DNA of 44,540 bases from a virus. The notes under the pieces were generated by a model, which searched no databases, was not told where the DNA came from, and worked only from the letters and a program-made list of their open reading frames with translations. Positions 17,314 through 35,541 of this stretch are shown in pieces (position 1 is the stretch's first letter; each line of letters begins with the position of its first letter). The stretch spans positions 1-44,540 of IMG/VR virus record IMGVR_UViG_3300045988_177818. One strand, 5' to 3'. Made by a program: the position numbers and the translations under genes.

Positions 17314-17387
17314 CAAAATTAGTCCAGAAGAAACAGATTTACTTGTTTTTGCTTCATGGATAACAAACCTTTTGCCAATTGTTTGTT
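17314..17387 (-). promoter_or_regulatory. Late promoter 4: dyad 17362-17387 plus 40-nt spacer plus -7 box TAatTTTG (17314-17321)
   Basis: The dyad is the exact reverse complement of the one at 32283-32308. Spacing is identical to the other three copies. Confidence 0.65.
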
Positions 17388-17423
17388 ATTTACATTTTCT
17401 CCTATTAGATACTTCATAGTATT

Positions 17424-20423
17424 CTACCAACCGGATGAGAACCTATTGCCTGTCCATATATTATTTACTTTGTCATATATGAAAATAGCCAACCAGCCTG
17501 CTGTTATATGTACACTTCTTGTTCCTGATGTAGGGTAACCTAAGGGGCTAATTCTGCCATATACATGAACATCTCCATTTGAATGGTTTCTTATGAAATA
17601 TATTTGCCCGTCCTCGGCATTGGTCGGAAGAGTTAATGTGACTCCTTGTGATATAGCTATTATAATGCTGTCCATAAGAGATAATGTTTGACTGCTGTTA
17701 ATTCTTCTTGTTCTTAATCTGAATCCACAAATATCTCCTTTGGGTACAAACAGCACATGATTGCCTGTTTCTACATAATCATCATAATTCTTAGCTCCAT
17801 CTACCGATAAATGAAAACACGTATTTATGCCGGCTGAATAGGAAGACATTCTACGATTTACATTTATTCTTATTGGAGATATAATAGCCCCGCCCGAAGT
17901 AGCCGGGACAGTATCGGCGCCGATGAATGTTGATACATATTGATTGGTAAAACGTATCAGTGAAGATGAAAGAAGCATTTTATTATTACCACTTTCAGCC
18001 GTCAGGCTTGATGAGATTTTAAATTCTCCTACAGCACCTTCTTTTGCGTTTACTTTACCTGATAAGTCCACATCAGTACCTATCATTTTTCCGTTATGAA
18101 GTACCCTAAAGGGCGCTCCCCCTCTATTTGCTTCATTGGCTCCGGCCCATATACGTACATCAGAGCCGGAATTTCCCTCTCCGGACATACCGGCATTGAT
18201 ACCATCATCATTACCGATACCGACCAAACCGGAAATAAGACCGTCCAAAAACCTGATACGCCCTGCTATCTCATTTGCTACCAAATCGAAATAGGTCTTA
18301 CCATCAGAAGAAACTATCTTATCCGTAGTTACCCGCCCCGGTAGTATCTCTGTGAATCCGTATAACGTGGCAAAGCTTCTCTCCCCGTTATTCTCACTGT
18401 TCAGGATACCGACAAGCAGATGATAATAACCGTCTATCTGTTCCAACGCAATAGCTGTTTCGCTTAAGAGGAACATCCCCGACTGGTTATCCTTGCTACA
18501 CTTGGCATATAGGTAGAATTTCTTTTCCGGGTTGGTGAGTGAGGGTGAATTGTATTCTGCCATATCCCAATACTTATAGTCGCTTGCCGCATGAGTATTG
18601 GATAAAGAAGTGATACCAAGTGTCATGTGTTGGATAATACCTGCCGGAGCGTTCAAGACCTTTGTGCTCGAATTGTAGCTAATATCATGGTTAACTACCA
18701 CCGGATTTGTCTTGGAGTTGACAAATCTGTATTGTAAACTCTCGTCACCCACAAGCATCTGCATGGTAGCAACCGTTATCGGGTTGATTGCTCCGGAAAA
18801 GCTAAGTAAACTGTCGGCAAGCATTTCCATTGTCTCTTTTGCGTCACGATAGTAACGTTTGGTGAATTGAAGGGCTTGTTTATGATTCTCTTCAACTTGT
18901 ACTTCGTTCGTTTCTATCTTATTAAGCTCGCTGGCAACGGATGTACCTACCGGAGTGTTGGACAGTTCTATTTCGGGACTGTACGGATTGTTCACATACC
19001 GTTTGATGCCGACTATACGAATGAGTGACCCTTCGGGATGGAACTGATTATCCGTGAAGCTCACGAAACCGCCCAATACGATTTTACCGCCAACAGTCAG
19101 CCAGCGTTTCTTTGCCCAAATGCCGTCAAGTGTACCAGTGAAGGTAAACTTCTTATCCTCGTGTTCGTAGAGATACTTAACAGCTTCCCGGAACACATCC
19201 CATGATGCACCTGTTCTTGTGGCGTTGTCACTTATATAGGCTTCGGGCAACTGAATGCCGAACACAGCGTATTTATCACCAACTTCCGGCATCCATACAC
19301 CACCGTCCGGCATAGTGATACCATCTATCTCCTGCGGGACTATCTCGAATTTACGTCCTACATGAGTGTATTTAACCTCGAACTCCTTGCCAGAAAGCAT
19401 ACCGGATTGGAAGATAACGGTCATTTTCTCACCCTCAATAAGGCAATCCTCAAAATTGAGGTTATTCGGGATACCGGCATCGTAAAAGTCATAGAAGTGC
19501 TTTTCCGTATTTATCGTAGTCACTTTGCTGACTTCTCCTACACGTGACGGGTAAATCTCCGTACAGTCCAAACTGTCTTCTTTGCTCGTGGTCAGCTCAC
19601 GATCGGCACGCATAACGCTCGTACCGTATTCGTCTGTCTTGTATGTGCGGGAAGCGGAAGCATTGAAACCCTCTTCACCCTCAAAGCGTGTACCGTCATA
19701 ACGGATAGTCTGCGATTTGGGCATCAGCAATTCCTTTGCGCCGTATTTGGAATAATCTATGTTTCTATCAGTCGTTTCCACAAGGATGATTTCGGGCGGT
19801 ATGTCGCCGCTTTCCCGGCCGACACCCGTCTTGAAACCGTGCCCCTTGCCATAGGATAAAGTCAGGGGATTGTCCTTGTTGTACTCGACTTTTTTCAAAT
19901 GTACAGTCTTTGTATGTACCCCCTCTATTACGGTTTCTGTAATCTGATATTCGATTTCATAGGTTTCTGCCAGTTGGCTCAAAGCGTCCAGACAAACGGT
20001 ATGGTTGTAGTTTATCAGCTTCTCCGTCCCATCTATGCAATCACCTATTACCCATCCCGAAGAACGTCTGTTCAGATTGTCCACTATCAGCTTTAAGTGC
20101 TCTTTCGGCTTGGCGGTATAGGGGAACTTGATACGGTTATCCACCGTATTGCGTATTTTCCAAAGTTCCGTATCGGCTTTGGATGTTTCGAGGACAAGCG
20201 TGTAGCTGTAATTCCTTTCACCGTTTTTCTTGAAATTACTGTCTTTCTTGAGCGAATAACGCTTACCGTAGAACTCGCACCATGAGCCTACAGGGACATT
20301 GAGATAGCCTGGATGAGAGAAATACAGTGTTAGTGTATCTTCGCCCATTACAGCCTCGTAGGAATAACTGTTGTCATCCGTAAGAAGCTCGATTGTTTCA
20401 CTTCCGTTATGTAGAGTAATCAT
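17424..20423 (-). CDS. Tail tip / Tal-like baseplate hub protein
   Basis: 999 aa, directly after Dit in the conserved siphovirus order TMP-Dit-Tal. Confidence 0.7.
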   Translation of the reverse strand: MITLHNGSETIELLTDDNSYSYEAVMGEDTLTLYFSHPGYLNVPVGSWCEFYGKRYSLKKDSNFKKNGERNYSYTLVLETSKADTELWKIRNTVDNRIKFPYTAKPKEHLKLIVDNLNRRSSGWVIGDCIDGTEKLINYNHTVCLDALSQLAETYEIEYQITETVIEGVHTKTVHLKKVEYNKDNPLTLSYGKGHGFKTGVGRESGDIPPEIILVETTDRNIDYSKYGAKELLMPKSQTIRYDGTRFEGEEGFNASASRTYKTDEYGTSVMRADRELTTSKEDSLDCTEIYPSRVGEVSKVTTINTEKHFYDFYDAGIPNNLNFEDCLIEGEKMTVIFQSGMLSGKEFEVKYTHVGRKFEIVPQEIDGITMPDGGVWMPEVGDKYAVFGIQLPEAYISDNATRTGASWDVFREAVKYLYEHEDKKFTFTGTLDGIWAKKRWLTVGGKIVLGGFVSFTDNQFHPEGSLIRIVGIKRYVNNPYSPEIELSNTPVGTSVASELNKIETNEVQVEENHKQALQFTKRYYRDAKETMEMLADSLLSFSGAINPITVATMQMLVGDESLQYRFVNSKTNPVVVNHDISYNSSTKVLNAPAGIIQHMTLGITSLSNTHAASDYKYWDMAEYNSPSLTNPEKKFYLYAKCSKDNQSGMFLLSETAIALEQIDGYYHLLVGILNSENNGERSFATLYGFTEILPGRVTTDKIVSSDGKTYFDLVANEIAGRIRFLDGLISGLVGIGNDDGINAGMSGEGNSGSDVRIWAGANEANRGGAPFRVLHNGKMIGTDVDLSGKVNAKEGAVGEFKISSSLTAESGNNKMLLSSSLIRFTNQYVSTFIGADTVPATSGGAIISPIRINVNRRMSSYSAGINTCFHLSVDGAKNYDDYVETGNHVLFVPKGDICGFRLRTRRINSSQTLSLMDSIIIAISQGVTLTLPTNAEDGQIYFIRNHSNGDVHVYGRISPLGYPTSGTRSVHITAGWLAIFIYDKVNNIWTGNRFSSGW

Positions 20424-20426
20424 ATC

Positions 20427-21383
20427 CTAATCTCCTAAATCAATAAAATATTCTTCATCTTCCGTAGTTATAAATCTGCCATCTTCCGAAGCAAGCAGAT
20501 ATTCTGTATCTCCCAGTCGGAAGCTGGTAAATACAAGGGTTAAGGTAAATGCCCACCATATACCATCAAGAGGGTTAAAACTGTCAGTTTTGCAACTCTT
20601 GTAATAACATGGATAGTTTTCACTCCATTCGTCAACGTAAAAGGAACGTTCCGCATCTTCATACTCATATCCTTCACCATCAGTTTTGGCAGACAGCTTT
20701 GTGAGGTCATGCAAAAGAGCATCATGGTTTCGCCAAAACGTGTCGAAGTCCGGGGCGCGCATTAGACACTTTATGCTTACATCTTTCGTTTGAAACTTCA
20801 CGTATTCGCCATCATATACAGCACCGTCCTGAAACTTGAAGTTCTGCAAAAGGTTTTTCTTCACAGCCGGAGTTTTGAGTATCTCCTCATTTGTACCTTG
20901 TAGAACGAGGATACCGTAAGCGGATAAGTCCACACCATCCAATTCATAGCCTTTCGGCAATAGAATACTGTTTATCGGTTCCTGATATACATAATCATCC
21001 GAGCGCGGGAAATCATTGGCAAAAGTGAACTTGGAGCGTTCGGTGTTATTATATATCTCAAAGCTATTCTGAGAAGAAAGCCTTAATTTAAACGTACGCT
21101 TCAAATGTGGGAAATAAAAATCGTGATACCCCATATCTGATAGCATGGAGACAAAATTTGAAAATTGCCATTCCCTGAAGAAGCCAAACTCAAGGATAAC
21201 ATCTTTCGTATCAAGATATATTTCCGAAAGGTCAAACTCTTTTCCGTCCTCTTCCGGCCAATCGTTACTATCCGGCGTTTTTGAAGGCGGGAACGCTACC
21301 AGTTCAGCGTAGTTGCCTTGTAATGTAGACATGCCGTACTCAGTATGTACATCTTTGCCATCTATATATAATTGGTTTTTCAT
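20427..21383 (-). CDS. Distal tail protein (Dit)
   Basis: 318 aa, immediately downstream of and overlapping the tape measure gene. Confidence 0.65.
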   Translation of the reverse strand: MKNQLYIDGKDVHTEYGMSTLQGNYAELVAFPPSKTPDSNDWPEEDGKEFDLSEIYLDTKDVILEFGFFREWQFSNFVSMLSDMGYHDFYFPHLKRTFKLRLSSQNSFEIYNNTERSKFTFANDFPRSDDYVYQEPINSILLPKGYELDGVDLSAYGILVLQGTNEEILKTPAVKKNLLQNFKFQDGAVYDGEYVKFQTKDVSIKCLMRAPDFDTFWRNHDALLHDLTKLSAKTDGEGYEYEDAERSFYVDEWSENYPCYYKSCKTDSFNPLDGIWWAFTLTLVFTSFRLGDTEYLLASEDGRFITTEDEEYFIDLGD

Positions 21384-24300
21384 CGCTTAAGTGTTATTCC
21401 TTTAGTGTTTAATGTATCGATACCACTTTTCATTGCGTACATGTATTCTCTAATTTCTACAAGATTGGATGTATAGTTATCAATGTTAGCCAAATGGTTA
21501 AGAATATCTTTGCTTTGACTTTCGATAGCCTTAGCCGTTTTGTCTATATCCGTAGTTGCTGATAAATTAGCAACAGAATAATTCAAAAGTCCGTCAATCC
21601 CTGTTGCCATACGGGAAACATTTTCATTAATGGAGTATGTATGTCCCTGCATGACAGCCAGCCGACCGTTGTTTTCGTCTACTGAATCTTGCGAGGCTGT
21701 GGCGATGCCCTTTTGTGAAGCTGTACGGGTATCATCTTCCGGCTGCGCCAAATCAATCCCAGCTTCTTTAAAATACCCGTTAACTTTACTTAGTATGCTT
21801 TCGAGTATTGGAATGTTCCTCTCGTAATTATCGACCAATGAACCAGTACGTTCGGCTACCTGCCTCATCAATTCCTCTTCGCTTAGCTGCCCACCGGCAT
21901 ACTTTTCATAAAGTTCTGCAATGTCATCATCAAAACTTCCAACAACCTTATCAAGGACGATAGTACGCATCATATCAGAAACAATATCCCTGAATGTGTC
22001 AGAAGCATAATCTTTAAAACTATCTAAAGCATCCTTCCCGTTATCCAGCCAATCCCACAAGCTGTCTACCATATTTCCCACCAGCGGCTCGTACAAAGAG
22101 CCTACATATTCGTGCAATTGTTTTGTGTATTCATCGTATTGTTTGCGAAGCTCTATCAGGGCTTCAAGGGTTTCTTTTGTCTGGCCGACAAGTTTGTTGC
22201 CGTAGTTATCGATAAGATATTGCGCCAGTTTTTTGTTAATCAATCCTTCATCATCAAACAACTCACCTAACCCTTGATTCCTTGCCCACGTAACAAGGTC
22301 TTCTGTTTTCTGCGATTTCCCACCTATACCTGTGCCTAAAAAGCCCTTACTTGCTTTCCGGGTTTCAATACGCAGGTTATTTACGGCAGCCGTCATGCCT
22401 TTGTCATAGTCACCCTGTCCCCAAATATTCTTCCATTTATCCCCCAATATTGCCAAAGGAGATAAACTACCCATTACCCAGTTAACCGCTCCTGTAAGCC
22501 ATCCACCTCCACTCTTATTTTGATATACCGCTTGTGATTCAGTCGCTTTATCAACATAAGCCTTAGCAATTTCATCATGTAATGCTTTATAGTCCCGAAG
22601 ATTTTTCAGATTATCTTTCGAAAACCAATTCTCTTCTGCTTGCTGCGCTTCCAATGTGGCAATACGACATTCATTGACAGCATCGGTAAGGGCATTAATC
22701 TCTTTAACTTTTTCTGCATAAACTTCATATTGCTTGAAAGCCTTATTACTCCCAAGGTCGCTAATTTTTTGGAGCAATTGAATCGCTGATGATATTATAG
22801 TGAGTATTACAGAGGCTTTTTCTATTGTAGATATTGATTTAGATGCAGCCTCAGAAACACTTTTCATTGCAGTTGATGAATTATCAACCAATGTCATAAT
22901 TCCATCCACCATTTGCAATGTAGAAGATGCGATTTTCCCTGCTGTCGAAAGAATTTCTCCTGCAACTCCACCGACAGCATCCCCCAAGTCTTCAAACCCA
23001 TGTTCTACTTTCTGTAATGTTTTATACAGGTCTTGCCATTCTTTAATACTTCGCTTATTCGGAGATGCTGTATTCTCATTGTTAGATTTACCTATCTGCT
23101 CGTTTAATGTATTAATCTTTGCGCGAAGCTCTGCCAGTTTTGGGCTGTTTGGAGAAATAAACTCCATCCGTTCCAATTCCTTTTCTGCATCGGTGAGTAG
23201 CCGTTGGAGCACTCTCAAACTCATAGTTGCAATACTATCAGCCCACGACTGGAACGCATCTTCACGCATGGCGAACTCTTTGTCTATAGATTTCAGCGTT
23301 TCATCACGTTGATATACTAACTCATCCTTTTGCGCACGAGTAGCACCGGACTCTTCTAACTTCTCTAAATCCTTTTGATATTGTTTTTCTGCGTTCAAAC
23401 GCTTAGTAGCATAATCTTGATATTTAGAGAGGATTTCATTATAATATCCGGCTATTTCATTGGCTTGTTTTTGAATAACGGCTTTATTTATGATGCCAAA
23501 TATAGATGTATCAACCGACACGGAGAAAGCATCAAATGTCCGTTTCTTGTAACTTTTATCTTTTGATGCTTTAGCATTTTCCTCCGCCTCAAATATTTGC
23601 CTTTGAATATCTACAACCTTACTAATGTACTCTTGCTTGTATTTATCAACAGCTTGTAGTTCTTTTTTATTGTTTAGTTTGCGCTGCGCTTGCTCTTTCT
23701 CGTAACCATCCTGCATTGCATCTATGCGGGCTTGCTCCACTTGATTCTCAAGTTCTATTTCCATTTTAATGCGTTCTACCCTCTCTTTATCACGCAAATT
23801 TTTAACTCGTTGTAAACGGTCTGCATAAGCATTTGCATCGTTTCCGCTTTTAGTCCCTATTCCATCTATTTTATTTATCAGCGCATCTATGTCTATATTT
23901 TTAGACATTCCCTCTAATATTTTATCATAACTATTAACCTCCCCAATAAGAGACTTCCACGCATCCAACTCTTTTTGCGCTTGTTCTTTAGCGTCATTTA
24001 AATCAGATGTTCGTTTTGACAGAAATACTTTTTCCTGAAGACTGCCTTCTGTCATCCCCCTTTCTCTGGCTTTTAATCTTGCATTTTCCAAAGCCAAAGA
24101 TGCCTCATCTACCTTTTGTTGGGCTTGTAGATATGTATTATATTGCACCCGTCTTTTCATTAACGCTTCTTCGCGCTTATTGGCTACATCTTCCATTCTA
24201 TTAAGCTGTGCTCTTGCGATAGCATTAGCAGTAAGTTCGCCTCTTAACTGGGCGTATATATCTTTTGCTTTGCCTGCTAAAATTGCCTCATTAGATAAAT

Positions 24301-25938: not shown

Positions 25939-25954
25939 ATCCTATATTTTCTTG

Positions 25955-26028
25955 TAAAGGTATCGCCATACGCAATTTCTGCCTAAAAAATCAAGGACGC
26001 AGAACAAACAATTAGGGAAAGGTTTGTT
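25955..26028 (-). promoter_or_regulatory. Late promoter 3: dyad 26003-26028 plus 40-nt spacer plus -7 box TAccTTTA (25955-25962)
   Basis: aacaaacaattagggaaaggtttgtt. The spacing matches the other copies. Confidence 0.65.
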
Positions 26029-26165
26029 ATTTATAGAAAAAGCAACCCCTAAATATATAGAGACCGCTTTTAATGTTTCTCTTGCCAACCCATTCTTCAT
26101 ATTTGGGGGCTTTTTATGTTTTATAACAACGCAGAAGATTGCAATAAAAGAAAAATAATATAATG

Positions 26166-26193: not shown

Positions 26194-26224
26194 CCGCACA
26201 TTAATCAACTAAAACGCATGCTTT

Positions 26225-26712: not shown

Positions 26713-26740
26713 GTACAAAAATAAGTACCTATATTTGTAC
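26713..26740 (+). promoter_or_regulatory. yefM-yoeB promoter/operator: three GTAC cores at 12-nt spacing overlapping the -7 box TAtaTTTG (26730-26737)
   Basis: GTAC at 26713, 26725 and 26737. Palindrome TTGTA-AG-TACAA at 26707-26718. Confidence 0.55.
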
Positions 26741-26763
26741 TAAACAATAAAAACAAGTAGATT

Positions 26764-27287: not shown

Positions 27288-27312
27288 AGCCCCAATCTTT
27301 CAATGGGGCTTT
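27286..27312. terminator. Bidirectional hairpin terminator between convergent genes
   Basis: aaagcccc-N11-ggggcttt, flanked by an A-run and a T-run. Confidence 0.6.
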
Positions 27313-27314
27313 GT

Positions 27315-27548
27315 TCATTTTTCCACGAACTCCTTTAATCTGTACAGCCTATCAATTGCCGGATTATAAAATACATCCGGATAGTGTTGCTTGATGTCGT
27401 TGATATTTGCTCGAATATACAGAGATGTATCGTATATATGTTCGGATTCCGATAATATTACTTCCTTTGGCAATTGTGCGGTTTCTGCCCAATTCATGAT
27501 TGCCTTAACACTATCTTCGTCATACGCGTATTTACTTTCTTGTGCCAT
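27315..27548 (-). CDS. Orphan 77-aa moron protein
   Basis: It has its own -7 box (27567-27574) and shares a terminator with yoeB. Confidence 0.55.
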   Translation of the reverse strand: MAQESKYAYDEDSVKAIMNWAETAQLPKEVILSESEHIYDTSLYIRANINDIKQHYPDVFYNPAIDRLYRLKEFVEK

Positions 27549-27566
27549 ACTAAGATTATTTTAGGG

Positions 27567-27574
27567 CAAAGATA
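27567..27574 (-). promoter_or_regulatory. -7 box TAtcTTTG (minus sense)
   Basis: It lies 18 nt upstream of the ATG at 27548. Confidence 0.4.
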
Positions 27575-27619
27575 ACCATTTCTTTTTAATCACTAATCAA
27601 ACCTTTCTGTGTGATTACC

Positions 27620-27835
27620 CTATTTAAGAATTTTACGCTGCCTATTCTTAAAGAATTCTTCTTCAGACACCTCTTGCAGAACCTCACCGAACACTGTATG
27701 AAGTTTATCCTTTTGCATGATTATTAGATTTCGATATGGTATTTCATAGACCACTTCTTTGTAAGACAAATGCAGATTTTCCATGAATGTTGCAATTTGT
27801 CCGAGAAGACAGGAATTTCCTGCTACTTCTGTTTT
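27620..27835 (-). CDS. T extension of the tail assembly chaperone, reached by a -1 frameshift (G-T fusion of about 192 aa)
   Basis: The -1 frame is open for 70 codons from the slip site (plus-strand gtttt 27831-27835) to TAG at 27620-27622. I checked this codon by codon. Confidence 0.6.
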   Translation of the reverse strand, partial: KTEVAGNSCLLGQIATFMENLHLSYKEVVYEIPYRNLIIMQKDKLHTVFGEVLQEVSEEEFFKNRQRKILK

Positions 27836-28200
27836 GCTGTCAGGTTTCGCACATTCTTCGCTAAAACTGACAGCTTGTAAAAATTTTCAGCAGATATTAA
27901 AGATAAGGCAACTTCCAAACCTTGTACAATTTCATCAAACGTACCCTTTCTTAGTTCTTCAAAAAGGCTATCGTCACCTTTCACAAACCAAGATAACGCA
28001 TGTGCCGCATTATCCATGTCTTTCAATGACGAAAGTACGTCATGAAACGTATTACATTCAGGAAACTCCGCTAAATAACATCCCGCACCGGCAATCTTAT
28101 GGATAGTGGGTGGTGATATGACATACGACTTATTATTAATGACAATTGTTTTAAAGTCAGCACCGATAATAGAACTGTTTACTATTTTTGCAGCATTCAT
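27823..28200 (-). CDS. Tail assembly chaperone (G)
   Basis: 125 aa between the major tail and tape measure genes. An A-AAA-C slippery site lies 3 codons before the stop. Confidence 0.7.
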   Translation of the reverse strand: MNAAKIVNSSIIGADFKTIVINNKSYVISPPTIHKIAGAGCYLAEFPECNTFHDVLSSLKDMDNAAHALSWFVKGDDSLFEELRKGTFDEIVQGLEVALSLISAENFYKLSVLAKNVRNLTAKQK

Positions 28201-28262
28201 ATAGGAATAATTAAATAGGGATGCAATCGTTTTTACACCCCTATATTCAACTTTTTTACATC

Positions 28263-28856
28263 TTAGATAGTCTTACTTTTGGAAGAAAGAGTTTCTCCTG
28301 AATAGGAAGCCATAGATGCCTCAGAAGCGGAATCAACCGCATCTCCATCAAACCAATACTCATCAGCTACACCTTCCGCTTCGTTATCCATTGCCACAGC
28401 AGAAACGCCCAAACCGATATTTTTCTCTACCATGTTCGATTTTCCTACAATACCAGCGTTGGTAAAAACAACATAATTACCTGTTTTCACACGTCCTACT
28501 ACAGCCTTATAAACAAGTTCCGGTGTTTCAGGAGCTTCCCAACCAACCTCTTTTTCGGATTCTTTTATAACCTTGCCACCCTGAAGTTCAACTTTATCCT
28601 TAAAAGAATAGGCGCCCATCGTGAAAGCAATAGTTTTTGCTCCTTCGTCTGTCATATCACGATAATAAGGCTTTCCTGTAAGTTCATTGATGTAATCAGT
28701 AATAGTCGGGTCATCTTGAGTATACCCCCACGTGTCTTGGTGGGAATTTTTCACTTCGGTAGCAGTAGCCAACCATGTCTTCAGTTTTGCGGCGGTCAAT
28801 GCTTCGGTAATTACCGGCCCGTACCAAATCTGTTTAATTCCAATAAATGGTTTCAT
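28263..28856 (-). CDS. Major tail protein
   Basis: 197 aa, upstream of the chaperone pair. No sheath gene is present. Confidence 0.7.
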   Translation of the reverse strand: MKPFIGIKQIWYGPVITEALTAAKLKTWLATATEVKNSHQDTWGYTQDDPTITDYINELTGKPYYRDMTDEGAKTIAFTMGAYSFKDKVELQGGKVIKESEKEVGWEAPETPELVYKAVVGRVKTGNYVVFTNAGIVGKSNMVEKNIGLGVSAVAMDNEAEGVADEYWFDGDAVDSASEASMASYSGETLSSKSKTI

Positions 28857-28862
28857 ATTTTT

Positions 28863-29255
28863 TCAATTTATGTTTAACACTTCAAATAATAATTTCACAT
28901 TAACAAAATGACAATTTAAATCTGTATCTTCCTCTATCCCATGACTTTCAACAGAATACTGATACCATGAACCCTTGTAATATCCTACGGAATCCAAAGC
29001 CTCAACAGCCAAACGTTCAAGTTCGTTAAGCCTTTTTAGATTGGCATTCTGCTTATAATCCGGAACACAGAAATTAACTTCAATAAATCCTCTGTTCCAA
29101 TAGGTATCAGATGTTTGGCGCTTAGAAAGAACAACAACACGCTCCGTATCTACTTTCTTTTTAGGGAAAGACCAGCTACGATATAAAGGCAGACCAAAAG
29201 CTTTGCAATCATTATATACTATGATACCGGCATCTGATGATGTAATCATATCCAA
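28863..29255 (-). CDS. Tail terminator / tail completion protein
   Basis: Assigned by position in the connector gene string. Confidence 0.5.
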   Translation of the reverse strand: MDMITSSDAGIIVYNDCKAFGLPLYRSWSFPKKKVDTERVVVLSKRQTSDTYWNRGFIEVNFCVPDYKQNANLKRLNELERLAVEALDSVGYYKGSWYQYSVESHGIEEDTDLNCHFVNVKLLFEVLNIN

Positions 29256-29572
29256 ACCTCCGAATAATTAAAATAATTACAGCTCTTAGGGTTGCGTGCG
29301 ATACCTTCCGCTTTCACTGTCTCTCCAAACAAGCAGCGAATATTGCTACCTTCTTTTAAGCCACGACCTTCATAGACTATATGATAATGCGACATATACA
29401 TATCTCCATTGTCTGACTTTAGTTCTTGGGTGTTATCATCGTCGCACCGGCAAACACCTATAGTTTCCCACGTATTATTTTCCGGCTTTACAATAACTTG
29501 TCCGTTAGAGTCATACTTAGGTTCTTCTTCTGCTAATACTTGTAATATGTGAGGAGAAAAATACATTACCAT
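29246..29572 (-). CDS. Head closure / head-tail adaptor protein
   Basis: Assigned by position; overlapping gene ends. Confidence 0.5.
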   Translation of the reverse strand: MVMYFSPHILQVLAEEEPKYDSNGQVIVKPENNTWETIGVCRCDDDNTQELKSDNGDMYMSHYHIVYEGRGLKEGSNIRCLFGETVKAEGIARNPKSCNYFNYSEVWI

Positions 29573-29904
29573 ATATCAGATACATCTTTAATCACACTCA
29601 GACCGACAATTACAGCAGTTTCCTCATTCAAGTCTATGCCATATTTCTTCAACAGAAGTTTAATATGCGTCTTAATTGAATCAACGCTCCAGGATGCAGA
29701 AAATCCACTTTCATCAACCGAGGTAGGATGGAGAATGTTTTTCTCAATAAAACCATCAATTAATGTTCCTATCAACTTTTTGTCCTCAGTAGAAGCTTCC
29801 TTATCTGCATTAAACCCAAAATCTAATGCAAAATCAGAAGCTCCTACATCGGACATCTCACCGATGTAGGAAAATCTCTGCTTTATGTAGCCTGCAATTG
29901 TCAT
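29566..29904 (-). CDS. Head-tail connector protein
   Basis: It lies immediately downstream of the capsid gene, with an overlapping stop/start. Confidence 0.5.
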   Translation of the reverse strand: MTIAGYIKQRFSYIGEMSDVGASDFALDFGFNADKEASTEDKKLIGTLIDGFIEKNILHPTSVDESGFSASWSVDSIKTHIKLLLKKYGIDLNEETAVIVGLSVIKDVSDIW

Positions 29905-31010
29905 TATGCTTCTACTGTCAATGAATAGATACCGTTAATCTCAGTAATGATAGGTAGTGACAACGACTGCGCCTTTGTGAACTCAACTCCATTGGAATTG
30001 TCCGTTTCACCCTTACCCCACTGGGAAATTCGAATTCTTCCATAATTGGAATAGGTTACACCAGGTTCTTGTCTCAATTCATTGTCTGCATAGGCATTTT
30101 TGATAACCCCTAACTTTCCAGCTGGGACAAATACCAAGTTCTTGTCATTCCAGGGGGAATACTCACTTAATGTTCCGTTGTTTTGAATCCGGGTGGTACG
30201 TCTGATGGATTCAAAGATAGGAAAGCCATTCTGACGCATGAACTCGTTCATATTTGACATCAACAGCGGAGTAGAAGATTTATCTGTACCAAAAACAACC
30301 TGTTTCATCTTCTTATTTCTAAGAATATATGACAAGCGTTTGGGAGAGAGAAGAATTTTATCAAATGTCACCTTCTCTTGAGAGGCGTCCAATATCATTT
30401 GAATGTCCTCAAAACAGTCCACATTGTTTTGATTATCGTCATTCCAATTCAAAGTTACCGATGCTATATTCTCAGCAGGCATTTTGTGGTCTATAACGCC
30501 ACGGACGCCACCCTCTGGATTGTTTTTCTCATCAAATGTAAAAACTCCTTTGTTAGACAAGGCGCCCAAGAATATAATATCCAGTTTAGACTGAACAGAA
30601 TTTACAACTTTTCTGACATTTTTCCACATCAGATTAATGAGTTGTTGCGTTTTCTGCTCATCCGTCAGCATACGAGAATCAAGTATTTGAAGGACTTTTC
30701 TGTATTCTTCAATCGGCATAGGATAACTCATCTGATGGGTCAGCACTTTTTGCTTTAATGTTTCCAAGCCGTCCGTTCCCATAATAGGCTCTTTCCCCTT
30801 AGAATCTAAAGTCGCAGCAGCCACACTCAAATTGTACTGCCCAATCAATTCTTCAAAGTTCAACCCAATCGTAGGAGTGTCCCAATCTAAATATCTTTCA
30901 TAGATATTTTGGTCGAAAAGTCTCTTACGTAACTCTGACGCCGTGTCAATACGAACTTGCACTTGTTTTGTAAGCTCGCCAAAAATAGAACTATAAAATA
31001 ATCCTGCCAT
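29904..31010 (-). CDS. Major capsid protein (lambda gpE-like)
   Basis: 368 aa, preceded by decoration and scaffold genes. The N-terminal sequence resembles the capsid-E family. Confidence 0.8.
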   Translation of the reverse strand: MAGLFYSSIFGELTKQVQVRIDTASELRKRLFDQNIYERYLDWDTPTIGLNFEELIGQYNLSVAAATLDSKGKEPIMGTDGLETLKQKVLTHQMSYPMPIEEYRKVLQILDSRMLTDEQKTQQLINLMWKNVRKVVNSVQSKLDIIFLGALSNKGVFTFDEKNNPEGGVRGVIDHKMPAENIASVTLNWNDDNQNNVDCFEDIQMILDASQEKVTFDKILLSPKRLSYILRNKKMKQVVFGTDKSSTPLLMSNMNEFMRQNGFPIFESIRRTTRIQNNGTLSEYSPWNDKNLVFVPAGKLGVIKNAYADNELRQEPGVTYSNYGRIRISQWGKGETDNSNGVEFTKAQSLSLPIITEINGIYSLTVEA

Positions 31011-31013
31011 AAC

Positions 31014-31580
31014 TTATTGTCTTACATATTTAATACTTGGATTATTCTTCATACACCATCCGCCGAGCAACCATTCATCCGGCATGGGATAAGCAACATC
31101 TTTAAGAATAATCACATCATAACCCGCTGAAACGGTCTGAAAACTCATATTGGTTTTATACTCGTAATCCGTCTCTACCACAGCGTTTGGTTCACTACCA
31201 GCGACAACTGCAAAAGCATCCTTAGTGGCTCCGGTTAAAGCGGCAGCAAGGGTCAATACGTCGTAATCGGAGTTGGAATTATCAATAGCAGTAATTTCTT
31301 GTTTATTCTCTCCGATTGTAAGTTCATCTCCAATTTGCACAAGACTTCCCTTTTCAACTCGAGGAGCAGCAGTTGTCCCACCAGCTATTATCTTCACAGC
31401 TTTACAAACCGCACATTCCATTTTCGAGAAATCTAATGCAATAGGGGTTCCTTTGCGAATCAACGTTCCCTCAGGAAAGGTTTGCTTGATTCTAAAATCA
31501 CCGGGAAGCGTTTTACACTCGCCCCGCCAAAAAACGGGGAAGTTCCCTTTTACTTTTCCTTTTTCAAATACAATAGCCAT
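31014..31580 (-). CDS. Head decoration protein (putative)
   Basis: I chose the ATG at 31580 (MAIVFEKGK...). The longer track ORF would overlap the scaffold gene. Confidence 0.55.
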   Translation of the reverse strand: MAIVFEKGKVKGNFPVFWRGECKTLPGDFRIKQTFPEGTLIRKGTPIALDFSKMECAVCKAVKIIAGGTTAAPRVEKGSLVQIGDELTIGENKQEITAIDNSNSDYDVLTLAAALTGATKDAFAVVAGSEPNAVVETDYEYKTNMSFQTVSAGYDVIILKDVAYPMPDEWLLGGWCMKNNPSIKYVRQ

Positions 31581-31590
31581 AACTTTAGTT

Positions 31591-32211
31591 TTAATTAGCG
31601 TCCGGCAAACTTTCCGCCCATTCTTTAGCCAGTTCTTTGCCCTGGTCTTCTGGCGTAGACAAGGAGAATGCCGAACCTTTATCCTCCAAGCCTTTTGCGA
31701 CCTCATTTTGTCTCACTTTAGAAAGATAGTTTGTAATCGCCGCCTCATCCATATCGTCAGAGATAGCAAAACCTTCTTCTATTCTCTCCTTTGAGATTTT
31801 GAGTTCTTTTGCTTTTAAAAGAATCAGATTGTTTCTTGCGGTACGTGCCTGCTCTGCTTTCGCATTTTGATTTTCAGTCATGAGCTCGCTAATTCTTTTT
31901 TCCTGCTCTTGTTTGTACCTTGTAAACCACTCTGGCTCCTCGTTAGCAGGTTGCTGTTGGTTGCCCCCACTACCCTTTGCTTTCAAATCTTCCAATTCCT
32001 TCTTGTAGGTAGCGCCTTCCGTACGCAGCCTATCAAAGTTACTTTGGTAAGATTTCAGCATTGATTCCTGCCCCTTAATTATAGTTGCAAGATTATCATC
32101 GGTTATTAACCCCATAGCATCAAGCGAGGATGCTACCGATTGAAGAATTTCATCAGACAAACCCAGTTTTGAGAAATCCTGTTTAAGCTGATTAAATATT
32201 TTTTCTTTCAT
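31591..32211 (-). CDS. Scaffolding protein
   Basis: 206 aa, highly charged and helical, lying between the portal and capsid genes. Confidence 0.7.
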   Translation of the reverse strand: MKEKIFNQLKQDFSKLGLSDEILQSVASSLDAMGLITDDNLATIIKGQESMLKSYQSNFDRLRTEGATYKKELEDLKAKGSGGNQQQPANEEPEWFTRYKQEQEKRISELMTENQNAKAEQARTARNNLILLKAKELKISKERIEEGFAISDDMDEAAITNYLSKVRQNEVAKGLEDKGSAFSLSTPEDQGKELAKEWAESLPDAN

Positions 32212-32234
32212 ACTTAATTATTTTAAATTCAGGA

Positions 32235-32308
32235 TAAAAGTAGAGATTAGTAATAGATAGAGGAAATTTATAAAGGCTCCAAAACAAACAATTGGCAAAA
32301 GGTTTGTT
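32235..32308 (-). promoter_or_regulatory. Late promoter 2: dyad 32283-32308 plus 40-nt spacer plus -7 box TActTTTA (32235-32242)
   Basis: aacaaacaattggcaaaaggtttgtt. It lies directly downstream of the portal terminator. Confidence 0.65.
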
Positions 32309-32315
32309 ATTTTAT

Positions 32316-32345
32316 AAAAAAAGGGGATATTATTCCCCTTTTTCT
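32316..32345 (-). terminator. Intrinsic terminator after the portal gene
   Basis: Minus-sense AAAAAGGGGA-AUAAUA-UCCCCUUUUUUU, overlapping the portal stop codon. Confidence 0.6.
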
Positions 32346-33724
32346 CTATTCATAACTTGACGTTCATCCAATATTCGTTTAATTTCTTCCTGCCGGTTAT
32401 CGGCAATCGCAAGCATATTAACCGCTTGTTCAAGTGAAATAATACCATCTTGATAAGCCTTTCCCACTGCTGCCCACTTTCCTTGAACATCCTCATTAAA
32501 CGGCTCAGCAAATTCATGTTCGATACTCAATTTTTCTATCTTTTTTCTAAGATGAATATGGGTTACATTCATCATAATGGCAAGAATAAGATTCTTTTCT
32601 CTGTCAACCAATATATCATATATTTCCTTTAAATTATCCCTCTTAATGAATCCCAATATCATAGCCCGTTTCAATGCTTCTCCCGACAAAGTACCCGACC
32701 CCTTCATGTTTTCAAAAGAAAAATCAGGAGTAAATGAATCGAAAAGAATTGAAGAATTCAAATCTATCTTTTCACTCTCTTTCATGGAAGAGTATTCAGG
32801 TGGGGTCATATAATCAATCAGACTATTTTCCTTATTTGTCAGTTGGATAACCTGACCTACAGTATCAGGGTCAGCCAAAGATTTAATAACATCTGTAGTG
32901 GCCTTTATCTTAGGGTCAGCAAAATAGTTATTGGTATCAGCAGCTTTGGAATCAATCATTTCTTCCCGATCGCATCTTCTTTCAGTGCCTGCCCACGCTT
33001 TATCTTGGCGATAATAAATTACATTAATTTTGCCTGTAGGATTTTCAACCGGGGTTACATCCCATCCGATATTAGCCCGCTTGCATCGATATATAAAATT
33101 TGGAGTTTGTATATCAAAATGTTCTATTGTTCTATCTCCCTCTTTTAAAAAGTAACCATAACCAAAAGCTATCATGTTTTCATATTGGTCAAACAAAGGT
33201 CTCAGGGTATAACCTTTTGATTTGGATATAACGAGCACCTTTACGGCGGGCTTTCCACCATCATTATAAATATGATACACTTTAGCACTTTCGGTTTCAG
33301 CCCCCGCCAATCTTTTAGCTTGCCGCATGGTAGTATTAAATCTTGTATCTTTTAAAAACTGCATATAAGCACCAAAAGCTTCATCCTTACCCTCTATGTC
33401 CAAAGAAGGCTTCCATGATATAGGATTTCCCAACAAAAAGAACAACTCCACCTCATTTATGTACACTTGTCTACGTCGGGGAAGTTTTTCAACTTTATAG
33501 GGCTGTCTGTTCTTTCTCGGCTTATCAGGGCGTTTCATTACATCATGGGTTTCCGGATTATATTCCTTTATAGCATCAGATACACATATATCTCGATTTT
33601 GCATAACAGATTGTACGCGGGAAATATCTTTATTTTGAATAAGTTTCATCAAATCTCGTTCAACCCCTACAGCGTTTAGGGTCTTGTTACGGATAACATT
33701 GAATATTGCTTCTATAAAACTCAT
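32330..33724 (-). CDS. Portal protein
   Basis: 464 aa, immediately downstream of terL. Confidence 0.85.
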   Translation of the reverse strand: MSFIEAIFNVIRNKTLNAVGVERDLMKLIQNKDISRVQSVMQNRDICVSDAIKEYNPETHDVMKRPDKPRKNRQPYKVEKLPRRRQVYINEVELFFLLGNPISWKPSLDIEGKDEAFGAYMQFLKDTRFNTTMRQAKRLAGAETESAKVYHIYNDGGKPAVKVLVISKSKGYTLRPLFDQYENMIAFGYGYFLKEGDRTIEHFDIQTPNFIYRCKRANIGWDVTPVENPTGKINVIYYRQDKAWAGTERRCDREEMIDSKAADTNNYFADPKIKATTDVIKSLADPDTVGQVIQLTNKENSLIDYMTPPEYSSMKESEKIDLNSSILFDSFTPDFSFENMKGSGTLSGEALKRAMILGFIKRDNLKEIYDILVDREKNLILAIMMNVTHIHLRKKIEKLSIEHEFAEPFNEDVQGKWAAVGKAYQDGIISLEQAVNMLAIADNRQEEIKRILDERQVMNREKGE

Positions 33725-33734
33725 ATCATCAATT

Positions 33735-34916
33735 TTAATATAGTCCTAAATCTTCTTTATCATATTGCTTGGGAATCAAAACCTTTCCCATTATCTTACC
33801 AATCGTCCAATAACGGGCAGCGTCAACCAGATGGTTATAGGCATCAATAGGCGCATTTATAAACTTACCGTCTTTATTTTGTTCATATACATAATTTTTC
33901 AGTTCTTTAATGAGATTGACAGAATGTTTAGTCACACAAAGTTTATATTCCATCATCTTAAACAGGCCGCCCATAACTGAGCCTTTATATTTATCCGCTG
34001 GATAAATCACAATACCGGCATTGGATATTTCTTGAATAAGTCTTGGGTCTGCACTATCTGCATATACGAATAAACCTAATGGCTTCAACACATCTATTAT
34101 TTCACTTGTCAGCATGTGGGTTTGATAACACAATTCATCAAGATACATGCAATTATCTACTATACCACATCTTACCACCGCCGTAGGGTCAGCGCTATAC
34201 CCAAAGTCCAATCCAGCTCCAACATGTTTAGCGTAAGTAGGAAATTCATCCACAATTTCAAAATCCGGAAACACAAGTCCTTCTGCCATAGCTTGCAATC
34301 CCAAGCCGTACACGGCCCATAATACTTTGTTCTTATACTGAAGAGATTCTATCTCGTCTATAATAGTTTGCTCCAAAAAAGGATTATCCTTATAAGTAGA
34401 GATGAAATGAAAAGTCCGCGAATCTTTATTCAATTCACATAGCCAATGCTCGTCTGAAAAAGATGGATTATAATCTATAACTGAAAAATCAGTAGTACGC
34501 ATCACCAGTTGCTGCCATTCGAGGAAGGATATTTCATTGCCTTCATTACAATACAGAATATTACGCTTTCTTCCTCGTATCTTTTGCTCATCGTCGGTTG
34601 AGAAAAATTCACAGAACGAACCATTAGGAAACGTGTATACCATATCAGATTTATTCATGCAACGGTTATCCCACATTCGGAATTTATCTTGCATTATCTC
34701 CTTAAAATCTCGGAATACAGACCCCTTTAACGATGGCAGCGTCTTGCGCACAACAGAAAGAGAGGTCTTGGGATGCTGAAGTATATATACTAAAAGATAT
34801 ATCAATATATTATACGTCTTAGAACTTCTTGAACTTCCTTGCGCAGATACAACCTTATATCCAGATTTTATCGCACTATCAACAGTAGCATATATTTTAG
34901 TAGTTTGTATCAGCAT
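33735..34916 (-). CDS. terL: Terminase large subunit
   Basis: 393 aa. Walker-A-like AQGSSRSSKT and a C-terminal nuclease-like region with acidic residues. Overlaps terS. Confidence 0.85.
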   Translation of the reverse strand: MLIQTTKIYATVDSAIKSGYKVVSAQGSSRSSKTYNILIYLLVYILQHPKTSLSVVRKTLPSLKGSVFRDFKEIMQDKFRMWDNRCMNKSDMVYTFPNGSFCEFFSTDDEQKIRGRKRNILYCNEGNEISFLEWQQLVMRTTDFSVIDYNPSFSDEHWLCELNKDSRTFHFISTYKDNPFLEQTIIDEIESLQYKNKVLWAVYGLGLQAMAEGLVFPDFEIVDEFPTYAKHVGAGLDFGYSADPTAVVRCGIVDNCMYLDELCYQTHMLTSEIIDVLKPLGLFVYADSADPRLIQEISNAGIVIYPADKYKGSVMGGLFKMMEYKLCVTKHSVNLIKELKNYVYEQNKDGKFINAPIDAYNHLVDAARYWTIGKIMGKVLIPKQYDKEDLGLY

Positions 34917-35442
34917 CTACAACATCCCCCCTTTTATCTATTATCTGAATTGTTATAGAATCATTTTTGCCTTCCCCTATAATATCTTTCTGTTCAGATG
35001 CATCCCAACCCAACAATTTCGACAACTTCTCTATTGCATCAATCTTATTATATAGTTTTAGTTCATAACCTTTATCTGTACTCTTTACGGAAAGGATGGC
35101 TCTTTGAACGCCAATAGGCAAGGCAGATACATCCTTTACCACTATAGTAGTAAACATCTCATTAGACTTGATTTCAAGAGCATCAACGATATTCGCCCTT
35201 GCAATATCTGCCAAAATCCCGACTGCTTCATCTTTTGTAATATCTGACCGGCGTTGCATTTCAGAGCGCAACTCACTTATCCTTAGGGCTACCTTAGGGT
35301 TATTAGCCAATCTGGATGCTTCTACCCAAACCGTATTATCTGATTTTCCCTTGCATGAATAAGCGCGACGATAGGCGTCAGAAGCATTACCACTTTCGAC
35401 GTAATAATTACAAAAATTTTCTTGCTTAATTGAAAGGCTCAT
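34897..35442 (-). CDS. terS: Terminase small subunit
   Basis: SIKQENFCNYYVESGNASDAYRRAY is the typical N-terminus of P27-family small terminases. Confidence 0.8.
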   Translation of the reverse strand: MSLSIKQENFCNYYVESGNASDAYRRAYSCKGKSDNTVWVEASRLANNPKVALRISELRSEMQRRSDITKDEAVGILADIARANIVDALEIKSNEMFTTIVVKDVSALPIGVQRAILSVKSTDKGYELKLYNKIDAIEKLSKLLGWDASEQKDIIGEGKNDSITIQIIDKRGDVVDADTNY

Positions 35443-35467
35443 CCTATTATATTCTTTTTATAATTTT

Positions 35468-35541
35468 CAAAGATAGGACATAGTATAAAATGTGAGAAGC
35501 AAATGCCTCATCAATAACAAACAATCCGAGAAAGGTTCGTT
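35468..35541 (-). promoter_or_regulatory. Late promoter 1: dyad 35516-35541 plus 40-nt spacer plus -7 box TAtcTTTG (35468-35475)
   Basis: aacaaacaatccgagaaaggttcgtt. It lies 25 nt upstream of the terS ATG. Confidence 0.65.

Follow-up and report, generated by a model that had tools for sequence, protein, structure and literature searches.

In phage P2, four late promoters, each with an upstream dyad TGT-N12-ACA, drive separate morphogenetic operons under one small phage-encoded activator (PMC3931495). In the temperate phages of Gram-positive bacteria, the genes for packaging, morphogenesis and lysis are controlled by a small activator of the RinA/ArpU/LtrC superfamily, encoded directly upstream of terS (PMC3152322, PMC3753634). 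For temperate Bacteroides phages, no published account of late-gene timing was found in the protein-family libraries and literature that we searched, and the literature searches returned no description of either the element or the 154-aa protein family considered below. Here we analysed a 44,540-nt stretch of viral DNA (the window) from a temperate Bacteroides phage. We think it probable that four dyads in its late region are upstream activating sites of four late promoters, and that the protein bound to them is encoded by the phage, the likeliest being the 154-aa product as a dimer.

The pattern AACAAAC-N12-GTTYGTT occurs four times in the window, at the coordinates given by the original prediction (Table 1). 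None is expected, going by 100 dinucleotide-preserving shuffles, and the form AACRAAC-N12-GTTYGTT is likewise found four times (0 expected); no fifth dyad was found in the window even with two mismatches allowed. In 4/4 copies the dyad is followed on the minus strand, after exactly 40 nt, by a TAHHTTT(G/A) box. TAnnTTT[GA] is itself common, with 119 occurrences on both strands of the window (~0.0013 per position); from this count, and allowing for 200 possible offsets, we estimate the chance of four boxes sharing one offset at <1e-9. The 40-nt spacing that had been proposed is thus far beyond chance. The accompanying statement that every copy is intergenic needs qualification: D1 shares its first 2 nt with the TAA stop codon of the 154-aa gene, and D3 lies within a listed 80-aa ORF (25942-26184), which is taken to be spurious. 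The boxes lie 17-26 nt from the ATG of terS, of the 206-aa gene in the scaffold position and of the 139-aa gene before the tape measure, while P4 has its box ~150 nt before the 696-aa gene, whose ATG is probably at 17146 and which heads the fibre/holin/endolysin block.

Table 1. Positions of the dyads, promoter boxes, terminators and candidate regulator gene in the window
Feature	Position	Strand	Details
154-aa gene, candidate activator	35540..36004	-	just upstream of terS; large unnamed family
Dyad D1	35516..35541	-	AACGAACCTTTCTCGGATTGTTTGTT; predicted position -78 to -53
-7 element of P1	35468..35475	-	TATCTTTG; 40 nt from D1; terS ATG at 35442
Intrinsic terminator hairpin	32316..32345	-	-15 kcal/mol; closes packaging operon, directly upstream of D2
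Dyad D2	32283..32308	-	AACAAACCTTTTGCCAATTGTTTGTT
-7 element of P2	32235..32242	-	TACTTTTA; 40 nt from D2; 206-aa gene ATG at 32211
Terminator-like hairpin and T-run	26038..26071	-	-13.1 kcal/mol; upstream of D3, at head module end
Dyad D3	26003..26028	-	AACAAACCTTTCCCTAATTGTTTGTT
-7 element of P3	25955..25962	-	TACCTTTA; 40 nt from D3; 139-aa gene ATG at 25938
Dyad D4	17362..17387	-	AACAAACAATTGGCAAAAGGTTTGTT; 12-bp core inverted relative to D1-D3
-7 element of P4	17314..17321	-	TAATTTTG; 40 nt from D4
Conserved leader, ~150 nt	17160..17313	-	downstream of P4
Leader-end intrinsic terminator	stem 17165-17209, T-run 17160-17166	-	-19.9 kcal/mol; strong; just before 696-aa gene

The four boxes conform to the sigma-ABfr -7 element: positions 3-4 are free of G, and two of the boxes end in G, the other two in A. 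The refined Bacteroidota consensus is TAHHTTTG, running from T-12 to G-5 (PMC6847099). In their boxes, and in the distance of these from the first gene, P1 to P4 thus resemble Bacteroidota primary-sigma promoters. In contrast, they lack the -33 element of that promoter type, a TTTG which Bayley et al. reportedly placed, in 2000, ~19-21 nt upstream of the -7 element. It had been claimed that three of the four spacers are without it; in fact the canonical position is empty in all four, and the TTTG of copy 1 sits 24 nt from the box. What is found instead is an A/T tract at spacer positions 11-18 (~-42 to -35), and the dyad farther upstream. Because they combine a good -7 element with no -33 TTTG, these promoters should be weak on their own. 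The TTTG inside the dyad was rejected as a -33 element, since 42 nt separate it from the box; a reading of the dyad as an ECF-sigma-type promoter was likewise rejected, as family searches of the window ORFs gave no sigma-like gene. A sigma-70 promoter/terminator scanner reported 70 promoter-like sites versus 64 expected, which is uninformative for this host, and it missed long-loop hairpins.

The comparison set comprised >100 related phages; among GenBank phages, megablast with positions 17000-36100 gave no match. In the viral loci, all 64 true-core dyads of the window's type (class A) are followed by a -7-like box exactly at +40 (TAnnTTT[GA] in 60, TAAATTCG in four), while the spacers of the same 64 copies fall into 14 families that differ mutually at >12 of 40 positions. 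Mismatches to the 26-mer at this offset are bimodally distributed, with 170 matches at five or fewer and a background of at least seven. One prophage copy has a 41-nt spacing. The cultured strain Bacteroides gallinarum DSM 18171 carries a class-A prophage.

Copy 4 is indeed the exact reverse complement of copy 2. However, the conclusion originally drawn from this, that orientation is irrelevant, is contradicted by the relatives, in which 53 of 54 unique class-A units are oriented alike. The reversal of the 12-bp core in copy 4 is a single exception, and the same site in a 97%-identical relative is not inverted. The class-A asymmetry (ACCTT distal, ATTGT proximal) is conserved, and a simple symmetric dimer leaves it unexplained.

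The flipped core of D4 is among the observations that would fit dyads serving primarily as recombination sites, that is, junctions where late-gene modules are exchanged, relocated or inverted, with the link to promoters being secondary. In relatives of ~95% identity, the head module follows either the portal gene or the 999-aa gene, or else lies upstream of the 154-aa gene in inverted orientation; hybrid junctions coincide with dyads; and the phage encodes Sak4-like annealase, NinB/Orf and NinG/Rap functions. The dyads thus also mark junctions at which whole late-gene modules have been reshuffled. Nevertheless, exchange is expected as a by-product at any repeated 26-30-bp sequence, and the only recombinase found is a tyrosine integrase beside the likely attP, with no other dedicated one. 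Recombination as the primary role also leaves unexplained both the invariant 40 nt to the -7 box over unrelated spacers and the co-variation with a helix-turn-helix-like protein described below, and we regard it as very unlikely.

The dyads also border the predicted late transcription units. P1 would drive terS-terL-portal, P2 the head module including the major head protein, and P3 the 139-aa gene, the tape measure, the 318-aa tail protein and the 999-aa protein. With a terminator ahead of D2 and another ahead of D3, every unit requires a promoter of its own; D1 and D4 have no terminator in front. The P4 leader holds a poorly conserved mini-ORF starting at ~17297 and ends in a strong terminator before the next gene, and therefore activation of P4 alone may leave the fibre/lysis block unexpressed. 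The window contains no tRNA genes and no Rfam families.

Inverted repeats between transcription units could instead act as RNA hairpins that stabilise 3' ends, terminate transcription weakly or serve for processing between operons. D1 and D4 would be transcribed as the 3' ends of the upstream genes, and three of the four copies fold better than shuffled sequence (z ~-3). Their stems, however, comprise seven A/U-rich pairs of -3.5 to -7.7 kcal/mol, lacking the G+C-rich stem and U-run of an intrinsic terminator (a U-run follows copy 2 only), real terminators sit just upstream of D2 and D3, and Rfam has no match. Furthermore, in 26 unique class-A sites a change affects one arm at a time (AACGAAC or GTTCGTT), with no compensating pair; the commonest variant, GTTCGTT, would put an A-C mismatch on the transcribed strand. 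This single-arm variation, together with the weakness of the RNA hairpins, favours protein half-sites over an RNA stem. Nor does a role in RNA predict a fixed distance to a promoter box, and such a role is extremely improbable in our estimation.

The geometry recurs where the dyad itself differs. Other lineages carry different palindromes at the same offset (CCACAAT, GACACTT, CACGACAAT and others), and the core common to all dyad classes is ACA(A/C)T-N6-A(T/G)TGT. A search for exact repeated 11-mers found no motif shared in the distant relatives, whose dyads became apparent only when symmetry was scanned for with the -7 box as anchor. When Bacteroidales bacterial genomes were scanned with a 6-sequence alignment, 42 independent prophage loci were obtained, with 26 core-pattern dyads at offset 40. 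Eight were at offset 22, six of which reflect a second box of promoters also having an offset-40 box, and each remaining offset from 15 to 89 had 0-1 dyads. The cultured Bacteroides phage BS-TP2 (grown on B. salyersiae) has three sites in a dyad class of its own; at one of them a terminator-like hairpin lies between dyad and box, and two of the boxes start with G, not T. In class B and C phages, only one site was present within the ~20 kb examined and the homologue of the 154-aa gene abuts terS with no promoter between them, so regulon size differs between lineages.

As for the protein that may bind these sites, the original prediction named two candidates. The product of 10202-10495 (also given as 10202-10567) was dropped, having no PHROG or Pfam match, a far-sub-threshold NCBIfam match and no link to the sites. 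The other is the 154-aa protein, whose gene ends 98 nt before the terS ATG and has homologues upstream of terS in nearly all relatives; the family occurs in prophages assigned to Bacteroides, Phocaeicola, Prevotella, Parabacteroides, Paraprevotella and related genera. Pfam has no family for it, and 117 family members give only scattered marginal matches (Phage_Treg, two members, E 0.009); none of the 117 matches DnaA_C (Bac_DnaA_C) at E<=1. It has no NCBIfam match, a profile search of PDB sequences found no meaningful solved relative, and in PHROGs it matches only a family of unknown function. It contains two cysteines and no Cys4 zinc-finger motif (CX2CX22CX4C).

The structural model of the 154-aa protein (pLDDT 92) is all-helical, with an extra long N-terminal helix. 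Residues ~60-146 superpose on the DNA-binding domain of DnaA, although the Foldseek E-values of 0.07-4 are statistically weak; for the M. tuberculosis domain on DNA (3pvp_B), the TM-score is 0.63 target-normalised and 0.42 query-normalised (E 3.7). Many of the structural neighbours listed are small phage proteins annotated 'DnaA C-terminal', several from Bacteroidota phages (probability 0.6-0.95, E 0.07-2). In an hhalign comparison with a sequence of E. coli DnaA domain IV entered by hand, the probability is 2.6%, and the segment PCTISNNI, a loop and helix, aligns with the DHTTVLHA recognition segment of DnaA. The model thus suggests a weak resemblance to a DnaA-domain-IV-like helix-turn-helix.

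Protein and site also vary together. The dyad class equals the cluster of the 154-aa homologue in 69 of 69 loci examined, and the start of the putative recognition helix changes with the half-site (SNNI with CAAAC, SDNC with CGACAAT, SHNI with CCACAAT, SDYC with GACACTT). In one pair of phages, L117 and L120, the portals are 95% identical and the 154-aa homologues only 38%; at the corresponding point directly after the portal gene, L117 has a class C dyad and L120 a class B dyad. Homologue class and dyad class are genetically linked, a co-variation which in itself does not demonstrate physical binding, as another linked gene could encode the binder; it nonetheless supports the 154-aa product as the candidate that had been put forward. 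Since this protein belongs to no recognised DNA-binding family, a host regulator might be supposed to occupy the dyads and tie late expression to host physiology. However, phages of the same host genera differ in their half-sites, which follow the phage-encoded homologue, so that a single host factor would not fit; we see only a very slim chance of it.

Based on these comparisons, we infer that the 154-aa protein binds DNA, that it activates rather than represses, that its promoters act late, and where transcription starts. The host's primary-sigma RNA polymerase would recognise the four promoters. With the T of the box at -12, the dyad would span -78 to -53, centred at -65.5. A dimer of the 154-aa protein would bind these 26 bp, each half-site consisting of AAC(A/G)AAC and an inner AC(A/C)(A/T)T, with the inner cores 6 bp apart. 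From this fixed position, the bound protein would recruit or stabilise RNA polymerase, much as a class-I activator does, and switch on four units that are each terminated separately: packaging, head, tail, and the leader with the fibre/lysis block.

The comparative data give a protein-type site at a fixed promoter distance and not the sign of regulation, and the same sites could be operators through which the 154-aa or another protein silences the late promoters in the lysogen or blocks read-through. A roadblock could matter at D1 and D4, which are not preceded by a terminator, but D2 and D3 already have one. Sites at -78 to -53 are clear of the -7 element and the start, and promoters without a -33 element would seem to need help rather than silencing. 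Moreover, the candidate gene heads the late region, as those of known activators do, and the window has a separate CI-like repressor (38971-39498). Repression or insulation is therefore unlikely. An activator regulon of late promoters, as originally proposed, is supported by the conserved unit and by the recurrence of its geometry in other lineages and the 42 prophages, with function read from sequence.

Beyond this phage, we give even odds to a broader view. In it, this large unnamed family of small helical proteins would constitute a new class of late activator in temperate Bacteroidales phages, each member binding as a dimer to a 26-bp dyad that lies upstream of the -7 element at a rigid distance of 40 bp. 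Changes in a few residues that begin one helix would have given new half-site specificities on many occasions, and the repeated sites would double as crossover points for moving or inverting whole packaging, head and tail modules between phages. What is offered is a testable rule (dyad, 40 bp, TAHHTTTG) with a named candidate regulator family, and a table of natural protein and site variants that can be used to dissect recognition; the B. gallinarum DSM 18171 prophage and BS-TP2 on B. salyersiae are cultured systems. If true, it would exemplify activation over a long range at Bacteroidota -7/-33 promoters. It would also provide a set of orthogonal activator/site pairs with which Bacteroides, the dominant genus of the gut, could be engineered, and better prediction of late operons in gut viromes.

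The weak resemblance to DnaA domain IV lies in the predicted fold. DnaA binds 9-mer boxes at origins as a monomer, whereas the sites here are 26-bp dyads at promoters and the 154-aa protein has an additional N-terminal helix. With the RinA/ArpU/LtrC proteins it shares the position of its gene upstream of terS; according to Pfam it is unrelated to them in sequence, the host phylum and the type of promoter are different, and staphylococcal RinA acts at the promoter region that lies upstream of terS and governs the late operon, whereas here there are several insulated units with a site on each. As in P2 with Ogr (also P4 Delta and 186 B), the late units number four, and in front of each a single dyad stands at a fixed distance. 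The site differs, since AACRAAC-N12-GTTYGTT, with its common core and lineage-specific outer bases, is not of the form TGT-N12-ACA. The P2 late-promoter site is centred near -55 and that of the present promoters at ~-65.5, on a host polymerase that uses -7/-33 promoters, and the candidate is an unrelated helical protein without the Cys4 zinc finger of Ogr. By analogy, our best reading is an activator whose mode of action would be that of P2 Ogr or RinA, though it belongs to a new protein family and serves promoters of the Bacteroidota type.

Searching the window for AACAAAC-N12-GTTYGTT returned four matches, the dyads D1 to D4, and no match was obtained in 100 dinucleotide-preserving shuffles. 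All four 26-mers are preceded by AAAT and, on the minus strand, are followed after exactly 40 nt by a -7 box (TATCTTTG, TACTTTTA, TACCTTTA and TAATTTTG), giving the promoters P1 to P4. Thus, the four-copy dyad with fixed spacing put forward in the original prediction is borne out, as is its claim that D4 is the exact reverse complement of D2. Allowing up to two mismatches adds no dyad in the window, and a scan of the window for half-sites and for the core pattern did not find a fifth site. Because TAnnTTT[GA] occurs 119 times on the two strands of the window, we estimate the probability that four boxes share one offset by chance to be well below 1e-9.

Coordinates of the features discussed, with predicted stabilities where available
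Feature	Coordinates	Strand	Remarks
Replication/recombination genes	1-10100	plus	Sak4-like, NinB, NinG, helicase, initiator, DnaC-like
696-aa gene	15068-17158	minus	listed start TTG 17158
P4 leader	17160-17313	minus	conserved
P4-leader terminator	stem 17165-17209, T-run 17160-17166	minus	-19.9 kcal/mol
D4	17362-17387	minus	core 17369-17380
D3	26003-26028	minus
Intrinsic terminator	26038-26071		end of head unit, just upstream of D3; -13.1 kcal/mol
126-aa ORF	26225-26605	plus
Head module	26003-32308		D2 to D3
D2	32283-32308	minus
Intrinsic terminator	32316-32345		end of packaging unit, just upstream of D2; -15 kcal/mol
D1	35516-35541	minus
154-aa gene	35540-36004	minus	start of minus-strand arm, then terS, terL, portal
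TATCTTTG box	36038-36045		in 36005-36270, upstream of 154-aa gene
TTAATATATTAA palindromes	~36107-36118, ~36131-36142		upstream of 154-aa gene
TTGCACAAC repeats (three)	within 36005-36600	minus	beside integrase start
Tyrosine integrase	36520-37941	plus	right of minus-strand arm
CI-like repressor	38971-39498		right of minus-strand arm

The -7 element of Flavobacterium johnsoniae consists of T-12, A-11, T-8, T-7, T-6 and G-5, and is better described as TAHHTTTG (PMC6847099). In all boxes found here, G is absent from positions 3-4. In F. johnsoniae numbering, the dyad is centred at -65.5 and extends from -78 to -53, and the predicted starts at P1-P3 give leaders of 12-21 nt. The original prediction stated that three of the four spacers lack TTTG at -33; the absence stands and the count does not, as TTTG is found at this position in none of the four window spacers. 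The dyads might alternatively be sites for a repressor or a roadblock. We consider this improbable, given that they do not overlap the core promoter and that the phage has a separate CI-like repressor.

Portal similarity (79 viral loci with 48-99% identity) and the DNA pattern were used to gather relatives. As had been anticipated for related Bacteroidales phages, the dyad, the spacing of exactly 40 nt and the -7 box are kept, in phages down to ~72% portal identity. The spacers themselves have diverged beyond recognition and cluster into 14 families more than 12 of 40 positions apart, with a spacing of 40 in all of them; their only other conserved feature is an A/T tract at positions 11-18 (approximately -42 to -35). 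The strict arm pattern has 86 unique occurrences, 64 of which contain the true core and all 64 of these a -7-like box at +40 (60 TAnnTTT[GA] and four TAAATTCG); the remaining 22 are chance matches in unrelated contigs. The lone spacing exception is the terS-side site at 10464 of the class-A Bacteroides gallinarum DSM 18171 prophage (L165), where a one-base insertion places TATCTTTG at 41 nt; the matching site in the viral contig L101 has a spacing of 40. Furthermore, when mismatches to the 26-mer were counted upstream of every box in all loci, the distribution was bimodal, with 170 cases at five or fewer and a background at seven or more that peaks at 15. We are all but certain that the composite element of dyad, 40-nt spacer and -7 box is real and functional.

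The window represents a temperate Bacteroides phage of siphovirus type. After the portal gene, its minus-strand arm continues with a 206-aa gene in the scaffold position, the major head protein and head-tail genes, followed by a 139-aa gene, a 1380-aa tape measure, a 318-aa tail protein and a 999-aa protein, and ends with a 696-aa protein, holin and endolysin. P1-P4 each head one block, namely packaging, head, tail and fibre/lysis. Intrinsic terminators close the packaging and head units; hence, these units are mutually insulated, and a separate promoter is required for each. The 780-bp gap that separates D3 from the last head-module gene carries, on the opposite strand, a 126-aa ORF for which no PHROG family was found, and one relative (L158) has ~2.6 kb of extra DNA in the equivalent gap. 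Cargo seems to collect at module boundaries.

A leader of ~150 nt separates P4 from the 696-aa gene, and its final part, directly ahead of that gene, is a strong intrinsic terminator. From ~17297, a mini-ORF enters the 5' arm of this terminator in the window and in some variants; other variants have it truncated or frameshifted. The fibre/lysis block may require a further step for its expression, and the leader may act in attenuation or antitermination, or yield a short RNA product. The listed start of the 696-aa gene falls within the T-run and tail of the terminator, and ATG 17146 is the likelier start.

A role for the dyads as RNA elements is disfavoured by their arm mismatches and weak stems. 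Folded as RNA, they reach -3.5 to -7.7 kcal/mol, and Rfam gives no match for the window. Among 26 unique sites of the window's type (class A, AACRAAC-N12-GTTYGTT), arm position 4 is variable: AACGAAC is present in three and GTTCGTT in several, among them the commonest D2 variant, and the two changes never occur together in one site. The frequent GTTCGTT form therefore produces an A-C mismatch in the transcribed strand. Judging from these sites, the independent tolerance of either purine in each half is the pattern of protein half-sites.

More distant relatives were scanned for dyad symmetry alone in the 26 nt placed 40 nt upstream of a -7 box, and different palindromes were recovered: TTACCACAATTGGCGAATTGTGGTTC (class B), ATCTGACACTTGGCGAAGTGTCATTT (class C), ACCGCACAATCTCCCGATTGTTCCGT (L152) and ATCGCACACTTTATAAAGTGTATCAA (L161, whose portal is only 48% identical). 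Three copies of (T/C)ACGACAAT-N6-ATTGTCGTG occur in the cultured Bacteroides phage BS-TP2 (PQ571275), one before the packaging-side operon, one before the head module and one before a tail gene, and each is 40 nt from a box (TACCTTTG, GAAATTTA or GAACTTTG). Common to all classes is ACA(A/C)T-N6-A(T/G)TGT at 26-mer positions 6-10 and 17-21, the promoter-distal half being ACCTT in class A. At 23906-23990 of BS-TP2, the stretch from the dyad to the box GAACTTTG contains a terminator-like hairpin (GAGTGC...GCACTC plus T-run), an odd feature for an upstream activating site.

An independent set of 42 prophage loci was fetched from bacterial genomes via the 154-aa family, with record titles naming Bacteroides, Phocaeicola, Prevotella, Paraprevotella, Parabacteroides, Mediterranea, Tannerella and related taxa. 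In these loci, 26 core-pattern dyads were counted at offset 40 upstream of TAnnTTT[GA], eight at offset 22 and none or one at each remaining offset from 15 to 89; all 26 offset-40 sites have the orientation of the 154-aa homologue. Of the eight offset-22 cases, six come from promoters in which an offset-40 box is accompanied by this second one, and the other two have TACCTTAG at +40. Many class-D-like prophages share a near-identical promoter, ataacgattgaagatatttcgttatctttggttgtggtag TACCTTTG gggtactatcgc (BS-TP2, i.e. L164, at 4115; L184, L185, L189, L193, L196 and L202), and most of the minor peak at 22 is due to its second box, TATCTTTG.

The 154-aa gene extends as far as D1. Its family comprises 592 clusters at 90% identity and 433 representatives at 50% identity, with homologues annotated in Bacteroides stercoris, B. 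nordii and B. faecium; it has no named family in Pfam or NCBIfam, and only a PHROG of unknown function. An AlphaFold2 model built on a 117-sequence alignment (pLDDT 92, pTM 0.84) has seven helices. Foldseek matches to this model include the DnaA DNA-binding domain in its DNA-bound form (3pvp, target-normalised TM 0.63), TrpR, and many small phage proteins, several of them from Bacteroidota phages, that carry the annotation 'DnaA C-terminal', with probabilities up to 0.95; all these matches are weak one by one, yet consistent. An hhalign alignment of low probability pairs KVKPCTISNNI with the E. coli DnaA segment GGRDHTTVLHA. GGR and G-R motifs ahead of this segment are nearly invariant across the family.

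A stronger argument than structural likeness for the 154-aa protein as the putative binder is co-variation. The homologue cluster predicts the dyad class without exception in 69 loci, and the residues opening the putative recognition helix vary in step with the half-site: PC(T/V)ISNNI with A(A/G)CAAAC, K(S/T)TISDNC with (C/T)ACGACAAT, KTFISHNI with CCACAAT, S(S/A)ISDYC with GACACTT, and GSLISHNC with TTTCACAAT. L117 and L120 have portals 95% identical and 154-aa homologues 38% identical, and the dyad just downstream of the portal gene is class C in L117 and class B in L120. The converse is seen in L116, which is class C with a portal 75% identical to that of the window, and in L152, which is class A at 71%. 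Since portal identity and dyad class disagree in these pairs, linkage alone is insufficient to explain the co-variation. Binding of the dyads by a host factor is likewise disfavoured, the half-sites being phage-specific.

Upstream of the 154-aa gene, a TATCTTTG box and two copies of the perfect palindrome TTAATATATTAA may be its control point and operators. The TTGCACAAC repeats further upstream may be arm-type sites of attP. Many viral contigs start exactly at the 154-aa gene, as expected if a prophage end lies there. Where early genes precede the 154-aa homologue, a palindromic ATAGTACAAATATACTAT is found after a terminator and ~40 nt upstream of the start codon (L103, L107, L116, L117, L120, L124, L131 and L147); it is not the class-specific site, because it is identical across dyad classes A, B and C.

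Among relatives ~95% identical to the window, the ~6-kb head module (scaffold-position gene through the 77/106-aa genes) has three placements: after the portal gene (window, L084, L086), after the 999-aa gene (L097), or, in reversed orientation, ahead of the 154-aa gene on its upstream side (L099, L100). L095 is also among the loci cited for this relocation. Hybrid junctions combine the upstream flank of one dyad with the downstream promoter of another; the promoter moves with the downstream genes and the terminator with the upstream genes, which places the crossovers in or at the dyad. Judging from these junctions, the dyads appear to act as module crossover points. The 12-bp core of D4 is inverted relative to every other class-A copy found, including that of L009, which is 97.3% identical over 3 kb around D4 yet has the usual orientation; hence, a recent flip between the inverted 7-bp arms seems to have reversed the core. 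Nevertheless, it is unlikely that the dyads are primarily recombination sites, as such a role leaves the 40-nt spacing and the co-variation unexplained.

We therefore favour, as the probable reading, an activator acting through the dyads. The 154-aa protein, probably dimeric via its long N-terminal helix, would bind the dyad at -65.5 and, presumably late in the phage cycle, activate four promoters with a good -7 element and without a -33 element, in a class-I-like geometry. To our knowledge, no such activator architecture is known at this promoter type. The present case involves an uncharacterised protein family, an unusually rigid spacing and many specificity variants; this dyad system was not found in family libraries or in the searchable literature. 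The kind of system, a phage late activator with upstream dyads, is well known. P2 Ogr acts at four late promoters with TGT-N12-ACA (PMC3931495), much as the window has four predicted late promoters, each with an upstream dyad. Similarly, RinA-type activators are encoded upstream of terS (PMC3152322, PMC3753634), which is the position of the 154-aa gene.
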